Shown here in pieces: positions 1,213-58,361 of a stretch of DNA of 64,000 bases; positions within the stretch are counted from its first letter, which is position 1; each line of letters begins with the position of its first letter. The notes beneath the pieces are model-generated. The model was not told where the DNA came from. It saw only the letters and a list, made by a program, of their open reading frames with translations, and searched no databases. This stretch comes from a virus. Made by a program: the position numbers and the translations under genes. The stretch lies in IMG/VR virus record IMGVR_UViG_3300021185_003284, positions 1-64,000 of that record, one strand, 5' to 3'.

Positions 1213-1887
1213 ATGAAATCAACGGCACATTTTTTCGGAGATAGTTTTACATGTGGTCACACTTTGTATAAAACCTCTAGTATTTGGCCTAGATTAATTG
1301 CTAAAGGATTAGATTTAAAGTATAAAAATTATGCTCAAGGAGGAGCAAGTCCACAGTTTATAATTAATCAAGTTATTAAAGCATTGCCGAATATTAAAGA
1401 AGGTGATAAAGTATTTTTACTAGAAACTGTACCGGATAGAATAGAGGTCTATAATGAATATAAGGATGAAATTGTTTCTGTTACGAATGGTAAATTAGTA
1501 GATGCACTTGAATTTGGAGTTCCTTTTGACAAAAATTATTTTAATAATCAAGATGAAATAAAAAGTATATTTAACTTTATATACGACCATAGATATAAGA
1601 AACTAAATCCTTTTGGTAAGTACTTTTCTAGTATATTCTCTGATTTCGGTATATTTTTTAAATCAATAAAAGTAGAATACATACATTTACCGTATAAGCT
1701 CTCTTTTGCTAATATTCAAAAAGGCGAAATGTTTGAAACTTCAAGAGTAGCATCTAATGGTAGTACTGCTGATGATCATTTTAGTATAAAAGGACATTGG
1801 CAATTTGCCAAATTTATCTCAAAGAATTACTTTAACAGTAGTATAAAACTCCCAGAGGAACCTAAAAGAGGATACAACATAATATGA
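1213..1887 (+). CDS. SGNH/GDSL hydrolase-like protein
   Basis: FGDSFT block I, NYAQGGAS block II, DDH block V; start moved to ATG 1213 because the 1156 start lies inside the tRNA. Confidence 0.75.
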   Translation: MKSTAHFFGDSFTCGHTLYKTSSIWPRLIAKGLDLKYKNYAQGGASPQFIINQVIKALPNIKEGDKVFLLETVPDRIEVYNEYKDEIVSVTNGKLVDALEFGVPFDKNYFNNQDEIKSIFNFIYDHRYKKLNPFGKYFSSIFSDFGIFFKSIKVEYIHLPYKLSFANIQKGEMFETSRVASNGSTADDHFSIKGHWQFAKFISKNYFNSSIKLPEEPKRGYNII

Positions 1888-3551
1888 TACAGTTAGGAAT
1901 ATCTGCTTTTTACCATGACTCAGCTGCTTGTTTAGTAGTAGACGGTAAAGTTATTGCAGCAGCAGAAGAAGAAAGATTTACCGGAATTAAGCATGACAGT
2001 TCATTTCCTTTTAATGCTATTAATTGGTGTTTAAGGTATACTAGAACAACTCTTAAAGCAGTAGATCAAGTCTGTTGGTATGAAAATCCTGAATTAAAAA
2101 AAGATAGAGTACTTACTACTTTTAATAAACATTTCTTTAAAACGTTATTGTTAAGGTATAGATATTTAAGAGATTATAAAAAATATAATCCTGAAACTAT
2201 TTTAAGAAGAGGTGGGTTTAAAGGTGAAATAGTATACACCGACCATCATACTTCTCATGCAGCTTTTAGCCTACATACAAGTCCCTATGAAAATCCTGCA
2301 ATACTAACAGTCGACGGAGTAGGTGAATGGGATACCACAGCAGTATATAGAAGTAGAAACGGCAAAGTACAGAAAATGCAATCTATTAAATATCCTAATT
2401 CTTTAGGATTAGTATACTCTACTATTACTGCGTATTTAGGGTTTAAACCTAATGAAGGAGAATATAAAATTATGGGATTAGCACCATACGGTAATCCAGA
2501 TGTATATTTAGGTAAGTTAATGAGTTTAGTAGAAAATACATCTAATCAGTTTAGATTAAATACTAAACCATTCTCTTGGGAATACTCTGATAAAGTAATG
2601 TTTAATAAAAACTTATTTAAGGCACTTGGCATACTTCCTAGATTTCCAGAAGAACCAGTTACTCAGGAACACAAAGATTTAGCAGCAGCTTTACAGAAAT
2701 GGTATGAATATCAATTTACTAAATTGCTGATAACTGCAAAAAATATGTCGAAGTCACCTAATTTATGTTTAGGAGGAGGATGTGCCTATAATGGAGTAGC
2801 AAATGCTTTAGCTTATAAATATTTTGACTCAGTACATATCCCTTTTTCTCCATCAGATGCAGGATCAGCTATAGGTGCATGTTTACACCACTATAAAGGA
2901 GAACGTAAGGATAATAGTAATCCGTATTTAGGACCAGACTATAAAGATATCGAAATACACAAGGCTATTAATGACTTTCAAGAAAAATGGCCTGATTTTA
3001 TAACTTCGTTTAGACTGTCTGATGATTTAATAGTTAAAAAAACTGCTGAGTTGCTTTCTAAACAGAAAATAGTAGCATGGTTTCAAGGTAGGATGGAATT
3101 TGGAGCAAGAGCATTAGGTAATAGGTCTATATTAGCAGCTCCTCAAGATCCTAAGATGAGAGAAAAATTAAATTATGTTATAAAGAAAAGAGAAGGGTTT
3201 AGACCTTTTGCTCCTTCTGTAAAAGCTGATGAAGCAAGTAAATATTTTGATCTAAAAGAAGAAGTTCCATATATGAACATAGTAGTTCAAGCTAAGACTA
3301 AAAGGATACCTTCAGCTGTTCATATTGACAATTCAGCAAGGGTACATACAGTAACACCAGAACAAAACGAACGTTACTATTTATTATTAGATGAAATTAA
3401 GAGGTTAACTGGATCTCCTATACTACTTAATACTTCGTTTAATTTAAAAGATCAAACTATAACAATGTCCCCAGAACAAGCTATATCAAGATTTATGAAA
3501 TCTAATATAGATTTTTTAGTTATCAATAATCATCTTATACAGAAATTATGA
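1884..3551 (+). CDS. carbamoyltransferase, NodU/CmcH family
   Basis: YHDSAA, EEERF, HH.SHA, DGVGE, GEYKIMGLAPYG, GRMEFGARALGNRSIL, NTSFN. Confidence 0.93.
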   Translation: MIQLGISAFYHDSAACLVVDGKVIAAAEEERFTGIKHDSSFPFNAINWCLRYTRTTLKAVDQVCWYENPELKKDRVLTTFNKHFFKTLLLRYRYLRDYKKYNPETILRRGGFKGEIVYTDHHTSHAAFSLHTSPYENPAILTVDGVGEWDTTAVYRSRNGKVQKMQSIKYPNSLGLVYSTITAYLGFKPNEGEYKIMGLAPYGNPDVYLGKLMSLVENTSNQFRLNTKPFSWEYSDKVMFNKNLFKALGILPRFPEEPVTQEHKDLAAALQKWYEYQFTKLLITAKNMSKSPNLCLGGGCAYNGVANALAYKYFDSVHIPFSPSDAGSAIGACLHHYKGERKDNSNPYLGPDYKDIEIHKAINDFQEKWPDFITSFRLSDDLIVKKTAELLSKQKIVAWFQGRMEFGARALGNRSILAAPQDPKMREKLNYVIKKREGFRPFAPSVKADEASKYFDLKEEVPYMNIVVQAKTKRIPSAVHIDNSARVHTVTPEQNERYYLLLDEIKRLTGSPILLNTSFNLKDQTITMSPEQAISRFMKSNIDFLVINNHLIQKL

Positions 3552-6889: not shown

Positions 6890-7521
6890 TGTTATCTATA
6901 CAGATTCCAACAACTGTTTCTCGTTCTCATGTTTTTAATCCTCTATTAGCTGAGCTAAAAAGACAAGCAGAACCTTTTGGCGATAAAGTAGAAATAATAT
7001 ACCTTTCAGATCAAAAAGAAATGCCTTTAGGTAAGAAAAGAAGACTTCTTTATGAAATGTCTACTATGCCTTACAGCGTACAGTGGGATGATGATGATTG
7101 GATTCACCCTTTAGGTATACATCATATAATGAAAGAATTAGAATTCCAACCAGACTCTGTATCGTATAGAATGGTACAAGAATTTGATGGAAAACCTAAC
7201 GAAAGTATCCCCGGCAAAATGTTAGTATGTGATTTTAGAAAGAGGTACGCGGAAAGATGGGAGAATATGTACGGTTTCGATATAGTAGCACCTACAGACT
7301 GCAAATGTGTTATTAAAACAGATATAGCAAAAGAAGCATGGAAAGAAATACCAGATAATACAAGATATGGTGAAGATGGAATGCTAGGTAGAATACTATA
7401 TAAGAGGAGGCTATTAAAGGTTGAGAGATATATAGATAAACATATTTATTGGTATTTAAATCTTACCGGAGATGCATTTGGATTTTGGAGGTATGGGTTA
7501 GAAGAAAATTATATAATCTAG
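6889..7521 (+). CDS. glycosyltransferase family 2-like
   Basis: SIQIPT start, WDDDD DxD motif, YGED. Confidence 0.75.
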   Translation: MLSIQIPTTVSRSHVFNPLLAELKRQAEPFGDKVEIIYLSDQKEMPLGKKRRLLYEMSTMPYSVQWDDDDWIHPLGIHHIMKELEFQPDSVSYRMVQEFDGKPNESIPGKMLVCDFRKRYAERWENMYGFDIVAPTDCKCVIKTDIAKEAWKEIPDNTRYGEDGMLGRILYKRRLLKVERYIDKHIYWYLNLTGDAFGFWRYGLEENYII

Positions 7522-7550
7522 TTGGAAATTAGAAATAACTTTCTTATATT
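7522..7550 (+). promoter_or_regulatory. Bacteroidota-type sigma70 promoter TTG-N20-TATMTT (one of 17 copies)
   Basis: Same 20-nt spacer at 7522, 9872, 13027(TAG), 16357, 20420, 21000, 24241, 24444, 29174, 37612, 39436(TAG), 46597, 53753, 55596, 56626, 57444, 58380. Confidence 0.8.
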
Positions 7551-7568
7551 ATAGTATAATTAGACGAC

Positions 7569-7596
7569 AGTGTCACAGCACCACTTAAAAAACACG
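7569..7596 (+). promoter_or_regulatory. preQ1-I riboswitch-like aptamer
   Basis: AGTG-TCACAGCAC-CACT-TAAAAAA-CACG between a promoter and the operon containing queD/queE. Confidence 0.65.
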
Positions 7597-7599
7597 AAA

Positions 7600-7872
7600 A
7601 TGATGGACTTAAAGGAAGTCGAGAATGATCTCTATGATGTAGAGTCTCGCAGAATGACGGAAGAGCAATACTTAGCGAACCGTATACATCAAAACAAAAT
7701 TACATCTGATGAATCGATTAACTACCCTGATGCAAAGAAGCACCAGATTGTATCGTTTATTAAATCCGGTATTAGAATACTAGGATACTGTTTTATACCA
7801 TTTAATTTGGTAACCTCAGCTATTCTTCTTATATTATCTGAAATAGTAGGTATAATAGAAGAATTAGTATAA
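7600..7872 (+). CDS. small membrane protein
   Basis: Hydrophobic C-terminus; ATG 7600 preferred over GTG 7570, which lies inside the aptamer. Confidence 0.7.
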   Translation: MMDLKEVENDLYDVESRRMTEEQYLANRIHQNKITSDESINYPDAKKHQIVSFIKSGIRILGYCFIPFNLVTSAILLILSEIVGIIEELV

Positions 7873-7882
7873 AAAATAAGTT

Positions 7883-8350
7883 ATGGCAAAATATCAATCA
7901 ACAAAAGTATTCGATGGATTTAGTACCGTCTTTCGTCAATGGAAAGCCGAAACAACTCACTGTAGATTTCTTCACGGTTATGGAGTATCATTTAAACTCT
8001 GGTTTGAAGGAGAATTAGATAATCGTAATTGGGTCTGGGACTTTGGAGGAATGAAAAGAGCTAAAACCTTAATTGACGGAAAATCACCTAAAGCATGGAT
8101 GGATTATATGTTTGATCATACATACTTGATAGCAGAAGACGATCCATTTTTACCTGAAGCATTAAAGCTAGATGAGAAGGGTATAGCACAGGTTAGAGTA
8201 GTACCTGCTACAGGAGCAGAGAAGTTCTCACAATATATATACGAAAAGCTAGCTCCGTTCATAGAGACGGAAACTGAAGGTAGAGTAAAAGTTATAAAAG
8301 TAGAATTTAGAGAACACGGTAAAAACTCAGCACTATATGTCCCTAGGTAG
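7883..8350 (+). CDS. queD: 6-carboxytetrahydropterin synthase
   Basis: CRFLHGY, WVWDFG, FDH, TGAE motifs; que cluster context. Confidence 0.92.
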   Translation: MAKYQSTKVFDGFSTVFRQWKAETTHCRFLHGYGVSFKLWFEGELDNRNWVWDFGGMKRAKTLIDGKSPKAWMDYMFDHTYLIAEDDPFLPEALKLDEKGIAQVRVVPATGAEKFSQYIYEKLAPFIETETEGRVKVIKVEFREHGKNSALYVPR

Positions 8351-9116
8351 AATAGAAGATTATGATAAAAACTTACCGATTGTAGAAATATATACTGCAG
8401 TCCAATCAGAAGGCTCAAGAGCAGGATACCCAACGGTAGTAATTAGGACTACAGGATGTACTCACAGATGTTATTTTGGTGAAGGCGGTTGGTGTGATTC
8501 TTGGTATACAAGTATTCATCCAGAAAAAGGTCAATATTCGTTTAACGATATTATAGAAATGTACGATAAGAATCCTCAAATATCAGAAATGATGTTAACT
8601 GGAGGTTCACCTACTATGCATAAAAAACTTGTAAACGAATTAACACACTTTGCTAATGAAAGAAATATCTTTATTACTATCGAGACTGAAGGAAGCCATT
8701 TTCTACCCACTGATTATCCTATTAATTTGCTTTCTATTAGTCCTAAGTTCTCCAATAGTGTTCCTGTACTGGGAGTATCTACGCCTCAAGGAGCGACTAC
8801 AGACGAAAGAATGATTAAACAACATAATAAATTTAGATTAAAATACGATACTATAAAACAGAGTATGGACTATCATTCTGATTACCATATTAAACCTGTT
8901 TGGGACGGTAAAGATAATAATGCTCTAAATGAAATTATGGAATGTATTGAAACACTAAATGCTCCAAAAGATAAAGTATGGTTTATGCCTGCTGGAGATA
9001 GTAGAGAAGCTTTATATAAATCTTACCCTATATTATTTGATTGGGTTAGAGATAATGGTTATAGAATGACCTGGAGACCTCATATTATTGCATTTGAAGA
9101 TCAAAGAGAAGTCTAA
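8337..9116 (+). CDS. queE: 7-carboxy-7-deazaguanine synthase (radical SAM)
   Basis: QSEG...IRTTGC...C...WCDS, TGGSP, IETEG, SISPK. Confidence 0.92.
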   Translation: MSLGRIEDYDKNLPIVEIYTAVQSEGSRAGYPTVVIRTTGCTHRCYFGEGGWCDSWYTSIHPEKGQYSFNDIIEMYDKNPQISEMMLTGGSPTMHKKLVNELTHFANERNIFITIETEGSHFLPTDYPINLLSISPKFSNSVPVLGVSTPQGATTDERMIKQHNKFRLKYDTIKQSMDYHSDYHIKPVWDGKDNNALNEIMECIETLNAPKDKVWFMPAGDSREALYKSYPILFDWVRDNGYRMTWRPHIIAFEDQREV

Positions 9117-9484: not shown

Positions 9485-9883
9485 ATGGGAGTAGAGAAAG
9501 TATATTTAACTTGGGACGATATAAATGTACTTTTAGATAAGTTACATGAACAAGTAGGAGGGAAAGCTAGATTAGTAACAGGTATTCCAAGAGGAGGAGC
9601 AATAATAGCTATCTTATATTCTCATAGATTTGGAGTTGAGTATTTTAACAACATTAGTAATCATTATCCTCACTTATTAGTTATTGATGATATAGCTGAC
9701 ACAGGAAAAACATTTAAAAAGTATTATGATGAATGTCCAAAACCTATGTATGCATCTCTACACTATAAAAAACAATCAGTATTTAAACCTAATTACTATG
9801 TTGAAGAAGTAGGACCTGAATGGATTGTATACCCATGGGAAAATGAAAACGCAAAATCCATCCAAGATTATTTGGATAATTAA
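9485..9883 (+). CDS. purine phosphoribosyltransferase (Gpt-like)
   Basis: GIPRGG, LVIDDIADTGKT PRPP loop, WIVYPWE. Confidence 0.88.
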   Translation: MGVEKVYLTWDDINVLLDKLHEQVGGKARLVTGIPRGGAIIAILYSHRFGVEYFNNISNHYPHLLVIDDIADTGKTFKKYYDECPKPMYASLHYKKQSVFKPNYYVEEVGPEWIVYPWENENAKSIQDYLDN

Positions 9884-9910
9884 AAATAAATTACTATATT
9901 GTATTAACAA

Positions 9911-9938
9911 TGAGTCGTAGAACCTCAATAAAAACAGA
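9911..9938 (+). promoter_or_regulatory. preQ1-I riboswitch-like aptamer upstream of folE
   Basis: TGAG-TCGTAGAAC-CTCA-ATAAAAA-CAGA between the 9872 promoter and the folE ATG. Confidence 0.75.
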
Positions 9939-9947
9939 AGTTATATT

Positions 9948-10661
9948 ATGCCTAAAAAGTTTATAGAAGGAACAGAATTAGTTCGAGCCGGTTTTGCTAA
10001 CGGAATATCAAGTCAATTAGCAAAGAAACAGGAGAAAGAAGGACCTGAAGCAAGGTTAAATGCTGAAGAGAAGCAAGTTATTATAGATAATGCAGCAAAA
10101 GCATATGCAGATTTTCTAACTGCCTTAGGATGTGATTATGCTGATGATCCTAACTCTTCAGATACTCCAATGAGAGTAGCAAAAGCATACGTTAACGATT
10201 TATGGGCTGGAAGATATGCTCCACTAGATCGTATTACAGCATTTCCATCTGACGGTTATGACGGTATTGTACAGGAAAGTAATATACCTGTAACGTCTAT
10301 GTGCTCTCATCACCATCAAGCTATTAGAGGTACAGTAAGTATTGCTTATATAGCATCAGAAGATGGTAAGGTAGTAGGACTATCTAAATTAAATAGAATA
10401 GTAGAGCAATTCGGCAGAAGAGGAGCTATTCAAGAACAGCTAACTGTAGCTATACATAATGCTGTAGATAAGATATGTGAAGGTAATTTAGGAGTAGCAG
10501 TTCAAGTAAATGCAACTCATGCATGTGTATCATGTAGAGGAGTTAAGCATGGAGGAGCTTCTATGCAAACAGCTAAATTAACTGGAGCATTTCTAAATGA
10601 AGACTCAGCTAAAGCAGAGTTTTATAAAAATATAGAATTAGCAAGTATATGCAAGCATTAG
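9948..10661 (+). CDS. folE: GTP cyclohydrolase I
   Basis: DTPMRVAK, SMCSHH, GLSKLNR, IQEQLT, HACVSCRG. Confidence 0.95.
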   Translation: MPKKFIEGTELVRAGFANGISSQLAKKQEKEGPEARLNAEEKQVIIDNAAKAYADFLTALGCDYADDPNSSDTPMRVAKAYVNDLWAGRYAPLDRITAFPSDGYDGIVQESNIPVTSMCSHHHQAIRGTVSIAYIASEDGKVVGLSKLNRIVEQFGRRGAIQEQLTVAIHNAVDKICEGNLGVAVQVNATHACVSCRGVKHGGASMQTAKLTGAFLNEDSAKAEFYKNIELASICKH

Positions 10662-11531: not shown

Positions 11532-11706
11532 CTTAGACGAACATAAAAAAGAAGTAGAAGGTACTTTATATGTACCTTACGATATAGCAGTGAAAGCTCT
11601 AGCAGAGGCTTATGCAAGTAATAAGTCACTTGAACAGGTAGTAGATACAATAAAAAAATCTACTATGGATTTAAATAACGCATTTAAAGATTTAGATATT
11701 GATTAA
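11524..11706 (+). CDS. hypothetical protein
   Basis: Overlap-coupled ORF within the operon. Confidence 0.6.
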   Translation: MINLDEHKKEVEGTLYVPYDIAVKALAEAYASNKSLEQVVDTIKKSTMDLNNAFKDLDID

Positions 11707-12526
11707 GATAGCACACGAATCACCAAAGAGTATTTTTAGTACTGTACAGAAATTTACAGACTACGATTATGCTTTAGTACATTTATTTGAAGAAGACGAA
11801 GAGTACCTTCAACACTTTAAAGATGCATTAGCAAACGGTAGAGAAGTAATTTTAGATAATTCTATATTTGAATTAGAAGAAGCATTCGATGCTGATAGAT
11901 TTGCATACTGGATAAAAGAACTAAAACCCACTTGGTATATAGTTCCAGATGCTTTAGAGCAATGTTTTAAGACTTGTGATCAAGCTCATAAGTTTTTTGA
12001 AAAGTATCCTAAAGATAGTCTACCGGGAAAAGCAATTGGAGTAGTACAAGGTAAAACATATGAATCAATAGCTAGCTGTTACGACTATATGGATAAAGTA
12101 GCTCCTGTAGATATGATTGCTATATCTTTTGATTATTCGTATTATGAAGAGGTTTGTCCGCATCCTAACAAGTACGTTAGTTGGATGCTAGGACGTGCAA
12201 AGCTACTTGGAGATTTAGTTAAAAACGATGTTATTAATAAAGATAAGCCTCATCATTTATTAGGATGTGGTTTACCTCAAGAGTTTATGTTATATAGAGA
12301 ATCTAACTATGATTGGATATACTCTTTAGATACATCTAATCCTGTAGTACATGGAATAAAAGAAATAATCTATAAAGATCAAGGACTATGGGATAAAGAA
12401 TCTCAGAAGTTATTTGAATTAATTAACTATGAAGTTAATGAAGATCAATTAACATATATTAAAAGTAATATTCAAAAATTTAGATGGTTTACAAATGGAC
12501 AGCAAAATGTGGATAACGTTCTTTAG
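11699..12526 (+). CDS. dpdA: TGT-fold 7-deazaguanine transglycosylase-like protein (DpdA family, probably DpdA3 type)
   Basis: ILDNS, VPD, VVQG, HHLLG, SLDTSNP resemble TGT motifs; lies in the que cluster. Confidence 0.7.
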   Translation: MIKIAHESPKSIFSTVQKFTDYDYALVHLFEEDEEYLQHFKDALANGREVILDNSIFELEEAFDADRFAYWIKELKPTWYIVPDALEQCFKTCDQAHKFFEKYPKDSLPGKAIGVVQGKTYESIASCYDYMDKVAPVDMIAISFDYSYYEEVCPHPNKYVSWMLGRAKLLGDLVKNDVINKDKPHHLLGCGLPQEFMLYRESNYDWIYSLDTSNPVVHGIKEIIYKDQGLWDKESQKLFELINYEVNEDQLTYIKSNIQKFRWFTNGQQNVDNVL

Positions 12527-13043
12527 CCAAACTGGTAAAGAAATAGCAGACATAGCGGAATCAATAGGTCGATGGCCTGATAGAATTTATACTAACGATA
12601 GACCGGAAGATCTTCGAACTGTAGATCCTAGAATTGTAGAAAAAGGATTCTATACATTACCTAATAAACCTACGTTAGAGGATTATGAAGAGTTTTTAGT
12701 TTATTTTCCGGAAGCTACAATAACATTACATGGTTGGTTAAGAATTATGCCTCCTGAAATTTGTGATAAGTTTAATATATACAATGGACATCCAGGTTTG
12801 ATTACTAGGTACCCTGAATTAAAAGGTAAAGATCCTCAACTTAAAGCATATCTAGCAAAACATGAAGTAATGGGAGCAGTAATACATAAAGTTACTGCAG
12901 GAGTAGATGAAGGAAGAGTCTTAAAGGAAATATTCTTTAACTCTTGGGGTATTACAGAAACGGAGATGTGGGAAACTATGAGGGATAGATCGTTATATTT
13001 GTGGTTAGAATTTTTAAAAGAATTATTAGGAAATACGAAGTAA
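12495..13043 (+). CDS. dpdN: PurN-like formyltransferase (DpdN-like preQ1 formyltransferase)
   Basis: GWLRIM, NGHPG...PELKG, GAVIHKVTAGVDEG; adjacent to the dpdA-like gene. Confidence 0.7.
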   Translation: MDSKMWITFFSQTGKEIADIAESIGRWPDRIYTNDRPEDLRTVDPRIVEKGFYTLPNKPTLEDYEEFLVYFPEATITLHGWLRIMPPEICDKFNIYNGHPGLITRYPELKGKDPQLKAYLAKHEVMGAVIHKVTAGVDEGRVLKEIFFNSWGITETEMWETMRDRSLYLWLEFLKELLGNTK

Positions 13044-13597: not shown

Positions 13598-13955
13598 ATA
13601 CGGAGCAAAATTACTAAGAGTAGTAGATGGTGACACAGCAGATGTTATGATCGATTTAGGATTTAGTACCTGGGTAAAAGCTAGGTTAAGATTTAAAGGT
13701 GTTGACACCTGGGAAAAGAGAACAAGAAACCTAGAGGAAAAAGCTAAAGGTTTACTTGCTTCGGAATTTACGAAAAAATACCTAGAGATGAATGATGGTA
13801 AGTTTGAAATACAATCTTACGGTAAAGGTAAGTACGGTAGAGTACTTGCAGAAATATTCATAGATGGAGAAGAAAAATCTCTTAATGATTTATTAATAGA
13901 AAACGGTCACGCTTATGTTTATGAGGGTGGTAAAAAACAATTATTTAAAGGTTAA
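13590..13955 (+). CDS. thermonuclease (SNase-like)
   Basis: RVVDGDT, RFKGVDTWE, GKYGRVLA. Confidence 0.9.
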   Translation: MFRYGAKLLRVVDGDTADVMIDLGFSTWVKARLRFKGVDTWEKRTRNLEEKAKGLLASEFTKKYLEMNDGKFEIQSYGKGKYGRVLAEIFIDGEEKSLNDLLIENGHAYVYEGGKKQLFKG

Positions 13956-13956
13956 T

Positions 13957-14865
13957 ATGGCAGAAGTTAAAAATTATCAAGAAGTTGTAGATATTGCATC
14001 TAAACATTTAGGAACTGTAGGAGGTGCTGGGTACAAAGATACCTATGCTCCTGAGCTACTAGTAAAAATACCAAGATACTTAAATAGAGAAGGTTACGGA
14101 TTAACATCTGATAGCTTTGTAGGAGTAGATACATGGAATTGTTACGAAGTATCAGCAATTACTACTAAAGGTCAACCAGTAGCAGGAATGCTAAAAATCG
14201 TTTGCCCTAGTAATAGTGAATTTCACGTAGAATCTAAGTCAATTAAATTATATTTGAATTCATTTAATATGACCAGAATAGGAGATAATGCAGCTGATTG
14301 TATTAGTGGTATTGAAGCAAGAGTTAAGAGAGATCTAGATGAATTATTAGAGACTACAACAACTGTTACTTTCTATGCTTCAGATCTAGAAACTGAACCT
14401 TTATCTTTTCAAGAGTATACAGATTTAGGAGAAATAGCTAACTTAGATGCTATAGACTTTACAGCTTTCCAATCAGATGAAAGTCAGCTTGATATTGAAG
14501 AGCATAGCGATACTACTACTGTTAGATTTAGTTCTAACTTATTAAGGTCTAATTGTAGAGTGACTAACCAACCAGATTGGGGTGATGTATTTATTAAGAT
14601 TATAGGTAAAAACGTACCAACAGCAGAATCAATAGCTAAATATATTGTTAGTCATAGAACAGTTAGTCATTTTCACGAGGAAATATGTGAAATGGTATTT
14701 AAGCATTTATCTGATGCTTGTAAACCAGAACAGTTAATGGTTGCTTGTTTATATACTCGTAGAGGAGGATTAGATATTAATCCTATTAGAGCTACTCATC
14801 AATCATTAATTCCAGAATTTTTTACTAACCCAGAATATACTATTAGGAAGACTTTAAGACAGTAA
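13957..14865 (+). CDS. queF: NADPH-dependent preQ0 reductase (bimodular QueF)
   Basis: VESKSIKLYLNSF, LRSNCRVTNQPDWG, FHEEICE, YTRRGGLDINP; start moved to ATG 13957. Confidence 0.95.
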   Translation: MAEVKNYQEVVDIASKHLGTVGGAGYKDTYAPELLVKIPRYLNREGYGLTSDSFVGVDTWNCYEVSAITTKGQPVAGMLKIVCPSNSEFHVESKSIKLYLNSFNMTRIGDNAADCISGIEARVKRDLDELLETTTTVTFYASDLETEPLSFQEYTDLGEIANLDAIDFTAFQSDESQLDIEEHSDTTTVRFSSNLLRSNCRVTNQPDWGDVFIKIIGKNVPTAESIAKYIVSHRTVSHFHEEICEMVFKHLSDACKPEQLMVACLYTRRGGLDINPIRATHQSLIPEFFTNPEYTIRKTLRQ

Positions 14866-15539
14866 TGGAAACTTGCATCATCAATGGACCACTGGGGTGT
14901 GATTTATCGCTCAGTCATGTAAATAAACATAATGGAGGAGGACCTTTCTTTATAGAAAAGTTTTTGAGTAAACCAGGTGTTCTCGATAAGTTTAATGCTA
15001 CTACATCCGTAATGGAAATGTGTAGCGGTCCAGGGTTTATGGGCTACTACCTAGCATATAAGTTAAACCTTAATAATGCTTACTTTTTAGATATTAATCC
15101 TGAAGTAGCAGATTCTTATAAGGAGAATAAAAAGAGAGTTAATTTTAAAGTTAGTCATAAAGTGTCTGATGGTTTTAAATCATATACAGGTCCAAAAGTT
15201 AATTTAATAGTTCTTAACCCTCCTCATTTAGTAGAAGAAAAACAATTTGATAATCTAGCTAAGACTGTCCCTGAATGGTTTCCTACAGAAACACCAGAAG
15301 AAGAGAGACAATCTAGATTAATTTTATTAGACGAAGATTTTAAATTTCATACTCATTTTTGTGAGGAAGTTTACGACAGGTTAACTAAAAATGGTCAAAT
15401 AGCTTTTTTAGAAAATGAAAAGTTTATACCTCATAAAAGACTAGAAGAACATTTAGGAGATAGATTTAGTTATGAGTTTATACAATTTCAAGATACACTC
15501 GATGAAGGATACTATTTATTAATAGCCACTAAAAAATAA
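14865..15539 (+). CDS. class I SAM-dependent amino-methyltransferase
   Basis: EMCSGPG motif I, LDIN, NPPH motif IV. Confidence 0.8.
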   Translation: METCIINGPLGCDLSLSHVNKHNGGGPFFIEKFLSKPGVLDKFNATTSVMEMCSGPGFMGYYLAYKLNLNNAYFLDINPEVADSYKENKKRVNFKVSHKVSDGFKSYTGPKVNLIVLNPPHLVEEKQFDNLAKTVPEWFPTETPEEERQSRLILLDEDFKFHTHFCEEVYDRLTKNGQIAFLENEKFIPHKRLEEHLGDRFSYEFIQFQDTLDEGYYLLIATKK

Positions 15540-15802: not shown

Positions 15803-16368
15803 TGGACAAATCACTTGCCAAAATTTCACATAAGTATGAGTTCTTAAGATTAGAACTCGAAGAAAATCAAGAACAACTAGACGAGTATCTTGATAAGTGG
15901 AATAGCATTATCGGTAAGTACTTAATGGACAAACAAAAGGTTATGTGGGTTGATGAAGAAACTGGTGAGATTAGAGAGGAAAAACCTGATAAAGAATCTA
16001 AACCAGAAGCAGATCCAAGATTAAGAAAACTTTATAAAAGACTTAGTAAGCATGCTCACCCAGACAAAGGAGGAACTGTAGATGACTTTAATGAGTTAAA
16101 AAAAGCATACGAAGAAAGAGATGTAATAGAGCTTATTAAATTTGCTGTTAAGTATAACGTTAAAGTAAAATTGGTAGAGTCAGATTCTAAATTAATAGAA
16201 GCTAGGATAAACTCTTTATCTAATAAAATAAACACTATACATCAGAGCTTAGTATGGACTTATTTTAATGGCGACATACCTACAAAACAAGCAGTAATTA
16301 ATGAACTAGAAAAAGTTCATCAGATTAAATTATCAGAAAAAGATATAGGTACTTTCTTGGCATTCTGA
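15802..16368 (+). CDS. J-domain (DnaJ-like) protein
   Basis: LRKLYKRLSKHAHPDKGG...FNELKKAY. Confidence 0.8.
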   Translation: MDKSLAKISHKYEFLRLELEENQEQLDEYLDKWNSIIGKYLMDKQKVMWVDEETGEIREEKPDKESKPEADPRLRKLYKRLSKHAHPDKGGTVDDFNELKKAYEERDVIELIKFAVKYNVKVKLVESDSKLIEARINSLSNKINTIHQSLVWTYFNGDIPTKQAVINELEKVHQIKLSEKDIGTFLAF

Positions 16369-16403
16369 TATATTATTCGTATATTGTATATTATTAAACG
16401 GTT

Positions 16404-16862
16404 ATGGATTACTTAAATCAATTAGAGTGGGAAAAGATAATAGATATCACTAAAACTCCCTCTGGTCTATTTTGGCCTGAATGTCCTAGAGAATTTGCAA
16501 CGTTGTATAAACAAGGAGTTTATCGTATCTTAGTACAAGATAATGAAGGTGTAGTTAGAGTACGTAAAAATGGTATATACGGTGAAGGAAAAAAGAAAGG
16601 CGTAAACAATAGGATTAGTCAATATAGGAGTGCTAATAATAATCTACTTGAGTGGAGAAAAGGTAATAAAAAAGATAACGGTAGTTTTAAGACTTGTGAT
16701 ATATTAGATAAAAAGCTTAAAAATGGCCAAAAAGCAGTTATGATATCAGCTAAACTACCTGATAATTGGGTTAATGATACTGGATTTCCTTGCAAGATAG
16801 ACTTATACGAAATTGAATACGATCTTAAACAACAAACTTTAGAAGAAATATGGCTAACTTAG
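16404..16862 (+). CDS. hypothetical protein, possibly GIY-YIG-like nuclease
   Basis: GVYRI...KNG...RISQY pattern; weak similarity. Confidence 0.4.
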   Translation: MDYLNQLEWEKIIDITKTPSGLFWPECPREFATLYKQGVYRILVQDNEGVVRVRKNGIYGEGKKKGVNNRISQYRSANNNLLEWRKGNKKDNGSFKTCDILDKKLKNGQKAVMISAKLPDNWVNDTGFPCKIDLYEIEYDLKQQTLEEIWLT

Positions 16863-20964: not shown

Positions 20965-21057
20965 ATTTTAAGTTTTTTAGTTTTTTTTCGCTCTCGACGT
21001 TGGTCCTTTAATTAAATTTTCTTATATTAATTAATATTAAAAGTTATAAAATATTTT

Positions 21058-55607: not shown

Positions 55608-55656
55608 TATAATTTTCTTATATTAAGGTATAATTAATTAATAAAAAATAAAGGTT

Positions 55657-55959
55657 ATGACAAAAGCGAAACGCCACTACGAATCTTGGTCAATTGATGA
55701 AGCAAGATTATTTATGAATTACTATTTAGCTAATATTACTAGAAAAGATTATAGTCTAGTATTAGATAATTTTTCAAAGGAAGTTGATAGAACTTATGAT
55801 GCTATTGCATTTAGAGTAAAAGAAGTTTTGAGTATATTAACTGATGGAGATCAAGGTCTTAAAAAAGATAAATGGACAAAAGAATTTATCTATGTTGTTG
55901 ATGAAAAGCTAAATGAAGGCTCTATTTCTAAAGCTAAAATGATAATGTTGTTTGAATAA
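55657..55959 (+). CDS. hypothetical protein (possibly Myb-like helical)
   Basis: WSIDE...RTYDAI..R. Confidence 0.6.
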   Translation: MTKAKRHYESWSIDEARLFMNYYLANITRKDYSLVLDNFSKEVDRTYDAIAFRVKEVLSILTDGDQGLKKDKWTKEFIYVVDEKLNEGSISKAKMIMLFE

Positions 55960-56587: not shown

Positions 56588-56685
56588 ATAAAGTTAAACT
56601 TTTCCGGAAATAACTATGTAAATAGTTGCCTAGGAACTTAATTATTCATATATTAAGGTATAATTAAAAAGGTAAAATAAAGGTT

Positions 56686-57429
56686 ATGACAAATATTAAA
56701 ACAGTTAAAATGAAGGACATGAAGTTTGATCCTTCTCTATTCCGTCCAATGAAATCAGGACGTATAATCGATGCTCACTTCTCTTCTCAGAAAGGTTTGA
56801 TGAAAGGTACTAACTATGCAATCGTAGGTGATCCAGGTATTGGTAAAACTACTGTTATGTTAGATATGTTAGCTGACTTACAGAATAAAGGTAAGAAAGT
56901 TTTATTTATTTCTGGTGAAATGAATCAGATTGATATGTACGGTTACGTAAAAAGATACCCTAAGTTTGGTGAACTTCCAATATTATTTATGGGTGACCAT
57001 ACTGAAGATAATAACTTAGAAGTTATTGAAAATATCTTATCAGAAGGTTGGGATGTTGTACTTATAGATTCTATGGCAGAGGTTCAAAATGCTGTTGTAG
57101 ATACTCATAAAGGATGGATGTCATCTAAAAAAGCTGAGACTGAATTATTGAACTTATTTGAAAAGCATAATTTAGGTCAGAATGATTCTAATACTAATAC
57201 TTCTTTCTTAGTTATTCAACAAGTTACTAAAGGTGGTGAGTTTGCTGGATCGAATAGATTTAAGCATATGATGACTGGAATGGCTCATATGAAATGGACT
57301 AAAGAAGGTGATAGAACTTTCTTCTTCTCAAAAAACAGAAGAGGTGGTGATATGTCTGTAAGAATGTTTAGCTTGCAGAATAGAAATAGAATCGGATGGT
57401 TAGGAACTGTTGCAGTAGGTCAAGAATAA
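56686..57429 (+). CDS. RadA/Sms-like RecA-fold ATPase
   Basis: GDPGIGKTT, FISGEM, LIDS, QVTKGGEFAGS, KNRRG. Confidence 0.85.
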   Translation: MTNIKTVKMKDMKFDPSLFRPMKSGRIIDAHFSSQKGLMKGTNYAIVGDPGIGKTTVMLDMLADLQNKGKKVLFISGEMNQIDMYGYVKRYPKFGELPILFMGDHTEDNNLEVIENILSEGWDVVLIDSMAEVQNAVVDTHKGWMSSKKAETELLNLFEKHNLGQNDSNTNTSFLVIQQVTKGGEFAGSNRFKHMMTGMAHMKWTKEGDRTFFFSKNRRGGDMSVRMFSLQNRNRIGWLGTVAVGQE

Positions 57430-57515
57430 AGTTACTTAAATAGTTGCCTCACAAAGATAAAATTCGTATATTGTAAATATAAATTAATAATTAATAATTA
57501 AATAAAAATCAGGTT

Positions 57516-58361
57516 ATGTCAGATATTATGTTCAATTTTAAGCAAGATGAAACTTACATGAGTAAGGAAGATCTTAGGAATGAATGCCCTTTAGCATTCG
57601 CTAGTGCACCAACTAACCCTAATGTTAGTGGTAAATACTTATTCGTTAATACAGAAACTATTGTAGACGATTTAGATAAGTTAGGATGGAAACCAGTTCA
57701 AGCTGCTCAAAGAAAAGCTAGAGGTAATGCAGGTACTATTTTTAGTAAGCATATGGTTGCATTCCAGAATCCAGATATTAAGATTAAAGGTGAAGGCGGA
57801 GATGATGCTTGGCCTAGAATTATTATGACGAACAGTCATGATGGTATGCAAGCGTTTAAGTTTAGCGTTGGTATATTTAGAATGGTTTGTTCTAATGGTT
57901 TAGTAGTTGCAGATGAGCAATTTAGTGACTTTAAGATTAAGCATAAAGGTTATACCTTTGGTGAACTTAGAGAAGTAGTTAATCAAGCTGTAGCTGATCT
58001 TCCTAATAGAGTCCAAGTATTAAACGATATGAAAGATAGAGTTCTTACTCAAGAAGAAAAGAATAAATTAGCTTTAGATGCTATGTTAATTAGAGCTAAT
58101 ATTACTCCTGGTTCTGAAAAAGCAAAAGAGTTTAATTATGATGCTGAGACTATTGAAGATATTCTTGATCCTAAAAGAGATGAAGATAAAGGAGATGATC
58201 TTTGGAGAGTATTTAATGTAGTACAAGAAAAGATTACTCAAGGAGATTTCCATGCTGCATTAACAGGTGCAAAAGTAAGAAAAGTTCGTAAAATTAAATC
58301 TTTCGAAAAGGACTTGAAAGTTAATAAGGAACTATTTAAATTAGCGACTAATTTAATTTAG
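57516..58361 (+). CDS. DUF932/DUF945 family protein
   Basis: NSHDG, GIFRMVCSNGLV, LWRVFNVVQE. Confidence 0.88.
   Translation: MSDIMFNFKQDETYMSKEDLRNECPLAFASAPTNPNVSGKYLFVNTETIVDDLDKLGWKPVQAAQRKARGNAGTIFSKHMVAFQNPDIKIKGEGGDDAWPRIIMTNSHDGMQAFKFSVGIFRMVCSNGLVVADEQFSDFKIKHKGYTFGELREVVNQAVADLPNRVQVLNDMKDRVLTQEEKNKLALDAMLIRANITPGSEKAKEFNYDAETIEDILDPKRDEDKGDDLWRVFNVVQEKITQGDFHAALTGAKVRKVRKIKSFEKDLKVNKELFKLATNLI

Follow-up and report, generated by a model that had tools for sequence, protein, structure and literature searches.

The question raised by this locus is whether a short and strongly conserved RNA stretch, lying directly before the queD-queE operon of a marine phage, senses a product of the pathway that the operon serves, and by which route it could act on translation. 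The window, meaning the whole stretch of DNA that was analysed, is 64,000 nucleotides long; it is a strand-uniform part of a 113-kb marine virus record and is found in seawater and marine metagenomes from 17 studies. The named phages closest to it are the Flavobacterium phage vB_FspM_immuto and the Cellulophaga phages phiST and phi13:1, and the hosts of these named relatives are Flavobacteriia. In the DNA of immuto, all G are replaced by formyl-preQ1 (PMC10516641). The QueC, QueF, DpdA-like and formyltransferase genes of the window make up the same set as in immuto, and between queE and folE lie a ferredoxin-like gene and then a phosphoribosyltransferase gene (Table 1).

Other genes of the cluster deserve mention. 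A carbamoyltransferase gene (1884-3551) lies shortly 3′ of queC, past a tRNA gene (1123-1196, 66.8 bits), and a small-domain methyltransferase gene (14865-15539) abuts queF; the carbamoyltransferase and the methyltransferase may be further tailoring enzymes of the modified base. Related contigs also carry tRNAs near their que clusters.

Table 1. Positions in the window of the leader element, its sister copy, the promoters and the pathway genes, with the counterparts of Tte preQ1-I residues
Feature	Position	Strand	Basis or remark
QueC	159-980
Conserved phage promoter: AGTTGG (7520-7525), 19-nt spacer, TATATT (7545-7550)	7520-7550	+	motif conservation
P1 5′ strand, AGUG	7569-7572	+	paired with 7582-7585
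Loop, UCACAGCAC (DNA TCACAGCAC)	7573-7581	+	columns 7, 8, 11, 12 and 15 invariant (44-46 distinct sequences)
P1 3′ strand, CACU	7582-7585	+	covariation with the 5′ strand
A-rich L3, UAAAAAA	7586-7592	+	last five A invariant
Putative P2 3′ strand, CACG	7593-7596	+	C27 and A28 invariant
Counterpart of Tte G5-C16 (P1 closing pair)	G7572-C7582	+	alignment
Counterpart of Tte U6	U7573	+	alignment
Counterparts of Tte C7 and G11-C30	C7574, G7578, C7593	+	alignment
Counterpart of Tte C9-G33	C7576-G7596	+	alignment
Counterpart of Tte C15, preceded by A in type II	A7580-C7581	+	alignment
Counterpart of Tte A29	A7592	+	alignment
Small ORF, 90 aa, C-terminal hydrophobic domain, first gene 3′ of the element	7600-7872	+	virus-only
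queD, 6-carboxytetrahydropterin synthase, PTPS fold	7883-8350	+	PF01242, E 2e-13
queE, radical SAM 7-carboxy-7-deazaguanine synthase	8337-9116	+	PF04055; immuto homologue annotated QueE
Second promoter copy, TTGGAT-N17-TATATT, before folE	9872-9900	+	motif conservation
Sister element, UGAG-UCGUAGAAC-CUCA-AUAAAAA-CAGA	9911-9938	+	42.4 bits, family covariance model
folE, GTP cyclohydrolase I, first pathway step	9948-10661	+	PF01227, E 5e-42
Homologue of the DpdA of immuto	11699-12526
DpdN-like formyltransferase	12495-13043
QueF, two-domain	13915-14865

The leader element and its phage family

The element reads AGTG-TCACAGCAC-CACT-TAAAAAA-CACG-AAA at 7569-7599, exactly as in the sequence-only reading that had drawn attention to it, and the AAA that follows CACG leads into the ATG at 7600 of the small ORF of the queD-queE operon. 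In this aptamer-like unit of about 28 nt, a P1 of 4 bp encloses a loop of 9 nt and is followed by an A-rich tail of 7 nt that ends in CA. A second copy heads folE, as that reading had held: written as DNA it is TGAG-TCGTAGAAC-CTCA-ATAAAAA-CAGA, 10 nt 5′ of the folE ATG at 9948, and its P1 differs from that of the first copy at two of the four pairs, both stems being fully complementary. The folE copy is also kept in phage immuto, where the outer P1 pair is G-C instead of U-A.

Relatives of the element occur in about 60 distinct contexts on viral contigs, with one or two members per phage genome, and only before (small ORF-)queD-queE, queE-folE or folE. Sixteen of the 32 alignment columns are invariant, among them columns 7 (U), 8 (C), 12 (G), 26 (A) and 27 (C) and the G-C pair of columns 6 and 16; every sequence has C at column 15, and at least 90% have A at column 14. 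In one variant of the family, L3 has 8 nt instead of 7. The neighbouring genes share 40-90% protein identity while the loop and the A-tail are nearly invariant, and the adjacent small ORF is 33-87% identical despite the 16 invariant columns. Much of the alignment was collected by patterns that fixed the loop and tail letters, hence the apparent invariance is inflated where scans fixed those letters; a sequence set seeded by protein similarity shows the same invariance as the pattern-collected set. In contigs with a full-length relative of the small ORF (47-87% protein identity), the 32 bases 5′ of the start codon are nearly the same as those of the window.

The specificity of the element was assessed at several levels. 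A loose descriptor (a 4-bp stem, a loop of 7-12 bases with T first and C last, and an A-rich tail ending in C) matches 15 places in the window on both strands; because this descriptor alone is not rare, the case rests on the shared loop and tail sequence and on the relatives. When IMG/VR was scanned with the loop and tail letters fixed and the stem left free, 119 matches were obtained. All four P1 pairs are present in 36 of them, 35 of which lie directly before small ORF-queD-queE, queD, queE-folE or folE, and the other 83, with zero to three pairs, stand in unrelated, random-looking contexts. A family covariance model built from 46 distinct sequences finds exactly two sites in the 113-kb genome, scoring 42.9 and 42.4 bits with the next best at 12 bits. 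In five related phage genomes, of which two are 100% complete, it finds one or two sites each.

An exact-pattern scan for cellular homologues, covering a single genome for each of 185,579 prokaryote species, returned one chance match in a coding region and one MAG contig, NYWG01000135.1 (‘Verrucomicrobiales’, 5.9 kb). The latter carries two elements 2.3 kb apart and a QueE 96% identical to that of the window, and is thus almost certainly a phage fragment mis-binned in a bacterial MAG. Since the relatives, the pattern scan, the covariance model and the prokaryote scan agree, the element is real, restricted to phages and specific to que genes. Canonical preQ1 riboswitches were looked for in 20 related que loci that do not have the element, and none was found.

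The covariation of P1 is clear. As the sequence-only reading had seen between the two copies of one genome, changes in the stem are compensatory, and two of the four pairs change on both sides across the family. Four stem types occur (AGUG/CACU, GGUG/CACC, UGAG/CUCA and GGAG/CUCC), with P1 paired in 99-100% of cells, the outer pair being AU, UA or GC and the third pair UA or AU. The covariation score of P1 is matched by none of 500 shuffles and collapses in slid controls. The two G-C pairs of P1 never vary across the family, and targeted scans for stems with G/C at the third pair gave no match, while those for a second pair other than G-C gave two matches, both due to chance. With only four stem types, few independent events lie behind the variation. 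For the queD type, the lowest predicted energy belongs to another hairpin, GUGU/GCAC with a tetraloop; since neither the folE type nor the CCC-loop variants preserve it, P1 was preferred. The hairpin alone (-1.5 to -3.9 kcal/mol) has a z-score of about 0 against shuffled sequence, which is uninformative for so small a motif and is expected if the motif needs tertiary contacts or a partner.

The evidence on P2 is of another kind. In the queD copy the putative P2 pairs are C7593-G7578 and G7596-C7576. The first corresponds to G12-C27, which is uninformative on covariation because it is invariant. The second, column pair 10/30 and the equivalent of 9/33 in Tte numbering, had been presented as a further case of compensatory covariation; it is indeed C-G here and U-A in the folE copy, and the covariation claimed from it rests on these two sequences. 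Among 44 family sequences the pair is UA in 21, CG in 7, UG in 6 and unpaired in 10, and a phylogeny-aware sign test with five independent pairs gives p 0.25, so that the pairing amounts to a trend. All 12 contexts with the AC loop variant of the window end in CACG, and GU-loop variants have A (15), G (11), T (3) or C (2) at the same tail position. The AC variant does not form one clade, since at least five changes are needed on the QueE tree; whole-leader recombination could also account for the association of the AC loop with CACG. In a folE-type variant with the loop UCGCAGUAC, C10 stands opposite A30. Hence a P2 pseudoknot extending beyond the invariant G-C pair is plausible. If P2 is instead drawn in another register, as CGU with ACG, the AC-loop variants disrupt it.

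At 7575-7576 (columns 9-10) the loop dinucleotide takes the form GU or AC, with a single case of GC and none of AU. On the QueE tree, GU and AC flip at least five times without intermediates, by recurrent double change or by leader recombination.

Promoter, leader and first gene of the operon

The promoter that the sequence-only reading had placed at 7522 (TTGGAA-N17-TATATT) is confirmed by the relatives, nearly all of which have AGTTG-N17-TATATT before the element, and the predicted transcript start lies at about 7557-7560. The promoter motif has 20 matches on the (+) strand of the window vs 3 on the (-) strand. About 15 of the (+) matches are intergenic, and of these only the two que leaders carry the element.

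The motif (T)AGTTG(G/C)-N17-(T)TATATT stands on the (+) strand before many genes, at 16357, 20420, 21000, 24241, 24444, 25818, 29174, 37612, 55596, 56626, 57444 and 58380; it is conserved in related phage contigs and is unlike the usual Bacteroidota -33/-7 consensus. The leaders at 55640-55660, 56670-56690, 57500-57520 and 16395-16407 end in (A)AGGTTATG, which the two que leaders lack; it may be a context favoured for initiation, or else a short SD-like element that serves another class of genes.

The proximity of the element to the promoter raises the question of whether it acts in the DNA, as the operator of a transcription factor, or is a functionless leader module hitch-hiking with the promoter. 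The element does lie 10-18 nt 3′ of the -10 hexamer, with a stem that reads as an inverted repeat at the DNA level too. Nevertheless such a role is very unlikely, because the half-sites differ between the two copies of one genome yet stay complementary, the conserved part is the asymmetric loop and tail, and the orientation and the distance to the AUG are fixed. In addition, there are relatives in which the folE promoter is retained and the element is missing (L011:5650-5760, L018:5830-5935 and L034:5890-5993); the element is thus a module separable from the promoter, and its gain or loss among relatives has been independent of the promoter.

Four metatranscriptome runs gave contigs over the operon, and three contigs, from three studies, begin at 7570, 7598 and 7608; the RNA-library contigs take in the element from 7570 onward, and none covers 7364-7504. 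Because contig ends do not reveal transcript ends, and because DNA may have been carried over into the libraries, these starts are a weak hint of a transcript start near the predicted one.

The element could in principle be coding, if translation started at GTG 7570 and read through it to the ATG at 7600, a start that would have undone the sequence-only reading. This frame is open in the window, through a CAG where most relatives have TAG. An in-frame stop lies within the element in 44 of the 46 relatives, so GTG 7570 is not the start; the number of nucleotides between the tail C and the ATG, 4-12, does not change by threes, and conservation does not follow codon position. A coding element is thus hardly tenable, and the element is a non-coding leader.

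The small ORF that follows has no Pfam or PHROG match. Its Atlas clusters are 100% viral, with neighbours that are all viral hypothetical proteins, and homologues were found in 80 viral loci, in which the C-terminal hydrophobic half (about 50 aa) is conserved. The co-occurrence with que genes that the sequence-only reading had suggested examining is borne out, as most of the 80 loci have queD, queE, folE, MazG or DpdA within 3 kb. The small ORF lies beside these genes in at least three gene orders, including in phages without the RNA element. On the basis of this co-occurrence, it is a candidate for a role in deazapurine handling.

Comparison with the preQ1-I riboswitches

The sequence-only reading had described both copies as preQ1-I-like and had pointed to the Rfam PreQ1 covariance model for comparison; this model, RF00522, recognises neither copy. 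At its gathering threshold (39 bits) it has no match in the whole window, where the Rfam scan found only a tRNA, and at E<=10 neither copy was matched on stretches of 301, 671 and 47 bases (under about 7 bits). A search of the whole genome with RF00522 gave other weak sites and neither of the two copies. The best of these, at 20971-21004 on the (-) strand (17.4 bits), consists of a 2-bp stem and an A-run on the intergenic non-coding strand and was attributed to chance. It is worth noting that RF00522 leans heavily on the AUAAAAAACUAAGG tail. No model of Rfam 15 detects the element. Because RF00522 does not recognise either copy, the element is described here as preQ1-I-like.

The aptamers of Thermoanaerobacter tengcongensis (Tte) and Bacillus subtilis (Bsu) were taken for alignment from PMC10639078, and the roles of Tte residues, together with the definition of type II by an A before the specificity cytosine, from PMC11625349. 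In the Tte aptamer, C15 is the Watson-Crick specificity base and U6 reads N9, while G5-C16 forms the pocket floor and contacts the aminomethyl group, and C7 with G11-C30 forms the ceiling triple (PMC11625349). Equivalents of all Tte pocket positions, as well as the ‘AC’ of type II, are present in the element and are invariant or nearly so in its family (Table 1), and the variant loop UCGCAGUAC is nearly the same as that of Tte.

The element shares with the type II aptamers, Tte and Bsu queC, the layout of an H-type pseudoknot, in which a hairpin is followed by an A-rich tail, a U right after the P1 5′ strand and ‘AC’ right before the P1 3′ strand. The G-C floor, the loop C and G with the tail C, and the A preceding the tail C are also common to both, as is a position before queuosine or 7-deazaguanine genes near the start codon, like that of the translational Tte switch. 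The loop, UCGYAG or UCACAG beside UCGCAG in Tte, is a further point of likeness. As for differences, P1 has 4 bp instead of 5, L2 has 3 nt instead of 4-6 and L3 has 7 nt instead of 8-9, so that the aptamer is about 28 nt long and those of type II are 33-34 nt. Unlike type II, the element has neither CUAAGG nor a Shine-Dalgarno segment, its P2 is down to one sure pair, and it is confined to phages, on DNA-hypermodification genes rather than tRNA queuosine genes.

The class I topology and the specificity cytosine are also shared with types I and III (Carnobacterium antarcticum, E. coli). In type I, however, P1 is followed by UU, UC precedes the P1 3′ strand and a C breaks up the A-tail, an arrangement for two ligands; in type III, UU is combined with an AAGG that is buried completely. 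The element has none of these sequence features. On these grounds the element probably works like a type II preQ1-I aptamer.

A phage-borne RNA that senses preQ1 on queuosine-type genes has a precedent in the preQ1-II riboswitches reported in the Streptococcus phage Dp-1. These belong to an Rfam-recognised family in a phage of a Firmicutes host and form an HLout pseudoknot of about 70-80 nt, a fold unlike that of the element. In the literature searched, no paper ties a riboswitch to the phages considered here or to phage 7-deazaguanine DNA modification, and the word ‘riboswitch’ is absent from the immuto paper (PMC10516641).

The main rival explanation is that the hairpin and A-tail are a translational operator bound by a protein, be it a phage enzyme, a repressor or a host protein, and that the RNA senses no ligand. 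In favour of such an operator, the hairpin is short, weak and beside the start codon with a highly conserved loop, as in phage operators, and shuffled sequences are just as stable; the element is phage-restricted and essentially absent from the 185,579 prokaryote species; and RF00522 does not match it. The operator leaves the full set of pocket residues unexplained, since the eight pocket positions, the length of the A-tail, the preQ1-I topology and the location on genes of the preQ1 pathway only would all be coincidence, and no candidate binding protein was identified. We therefore regard a protein-bound operator as unlikely.

Somewhat more doubtful still is a true riboswitch of the same fold that responds to another ligand (preQ0, the formyl-preQ1 base, 7-carboxy-7-deazaguanine or guanine) or that acts as an ON switch. 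The pocket ceiling may indeed differ, given the 3-nt L2, the 4-bp P1 and the reduced P2; the end product of the phage is formyl-preQ1 and not preQ1; and class I preQ1 aptamers bind preQ0 too. Nevertheless, the specificity C, U6, A29 and the floor G are exactly those that read preQ1. Moreover, QueF, the preQ1-forming enzyme, and the DpdN formyltransferase are encoded in all five element-bearing genomes tested, with which a signal at the level of preQ1 fits.

Proposed regulation and its significance

Taken together, we consider it reasonably likely, and the best reading of the locus, that the element is a miniaturised OFF switch of preQ1-I-like type, specific to phages and acting on translation, which controls the first three steps of the formyl-preQ1 DNA-modification pathway. 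As the positions that contact the ligand in preQ1-I are kept, the element probably senses the modified-guanine supply and would throttle its synthesis.

In the proposed mechanism, the general phage promoter would transcribe the element as the start of a 5′ UTR of about 40 nt, and the pseudoknot would be locked once a 7-deazaguanine base was bound, preQ1 being the most likely one. The bound base would lie stacked over the invariant G-C closing pair, with the A-tail docked in the minor groove of P1 and the C of the tail paired to the loop G. Regarding the expression platform, the tail (CACGAAA) contains no SD-like purine tract, and the ATG, 6 nt away, is not preceded by a terminator; with neither terminator nor SD, we infer an occlusion that is independent of SD pairing. 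Flavobacteriia ribosomes favour unstructured A-rich leaders over SD pairing. The compact pseudoknot, ending 4-12 nt 5′ of the AUG, would hide the A-rich unstructured leader needed by the ribosomes of Shine-Dalgarno-poor Bacteroidota. Translation of the small ORF-queD-queE operon would then fall, likewise that of folE via the twin copy, and the outcome would be feedback on the first three steps of the pathway. Coordinated control of the queD-queE and folE units by preQ1, already suggested by the sequence-only reading, would be of this kind. A point against an OFF switch is that a phage obliged to replace every G has no obvious use for feedback.

A bolder proposal, about which we are nearly evenly divided, leaning slightly against it, is that the element is the smallest natural metabolite-sensing aptamer so far (about 28 nt), derived from preQ1-I by evolution in phages and acting without an SD, through the hiding of an A-rich landing site for ribosomes, in feedback on the replacement of G by formyl-preQ1, and that the co-regulated 90-aa membrane protein is a new component of phage 7-deazaguanine metabolism. 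The idea is directly testable because the cultured relative immuto, whose host is Flavobacterium sp. LMO8, carries the folE copy. The analysis also flags a virus-only family of small membrane proteins as tied to que genes. If ligand binding is borne out, the minimum of natural aptamers would move from 33-34 nt to about 28 nt and the element would define the irreducible preQ1 pocket. It would also show a translational riboswitch working in a Bacteroidota-type system without Shine-Dalgarno pairing and, in a phage group that is widespread, a virus that controls its own DNA hypermodification, an anti-restriction trait, by means of a metabolite sensor.
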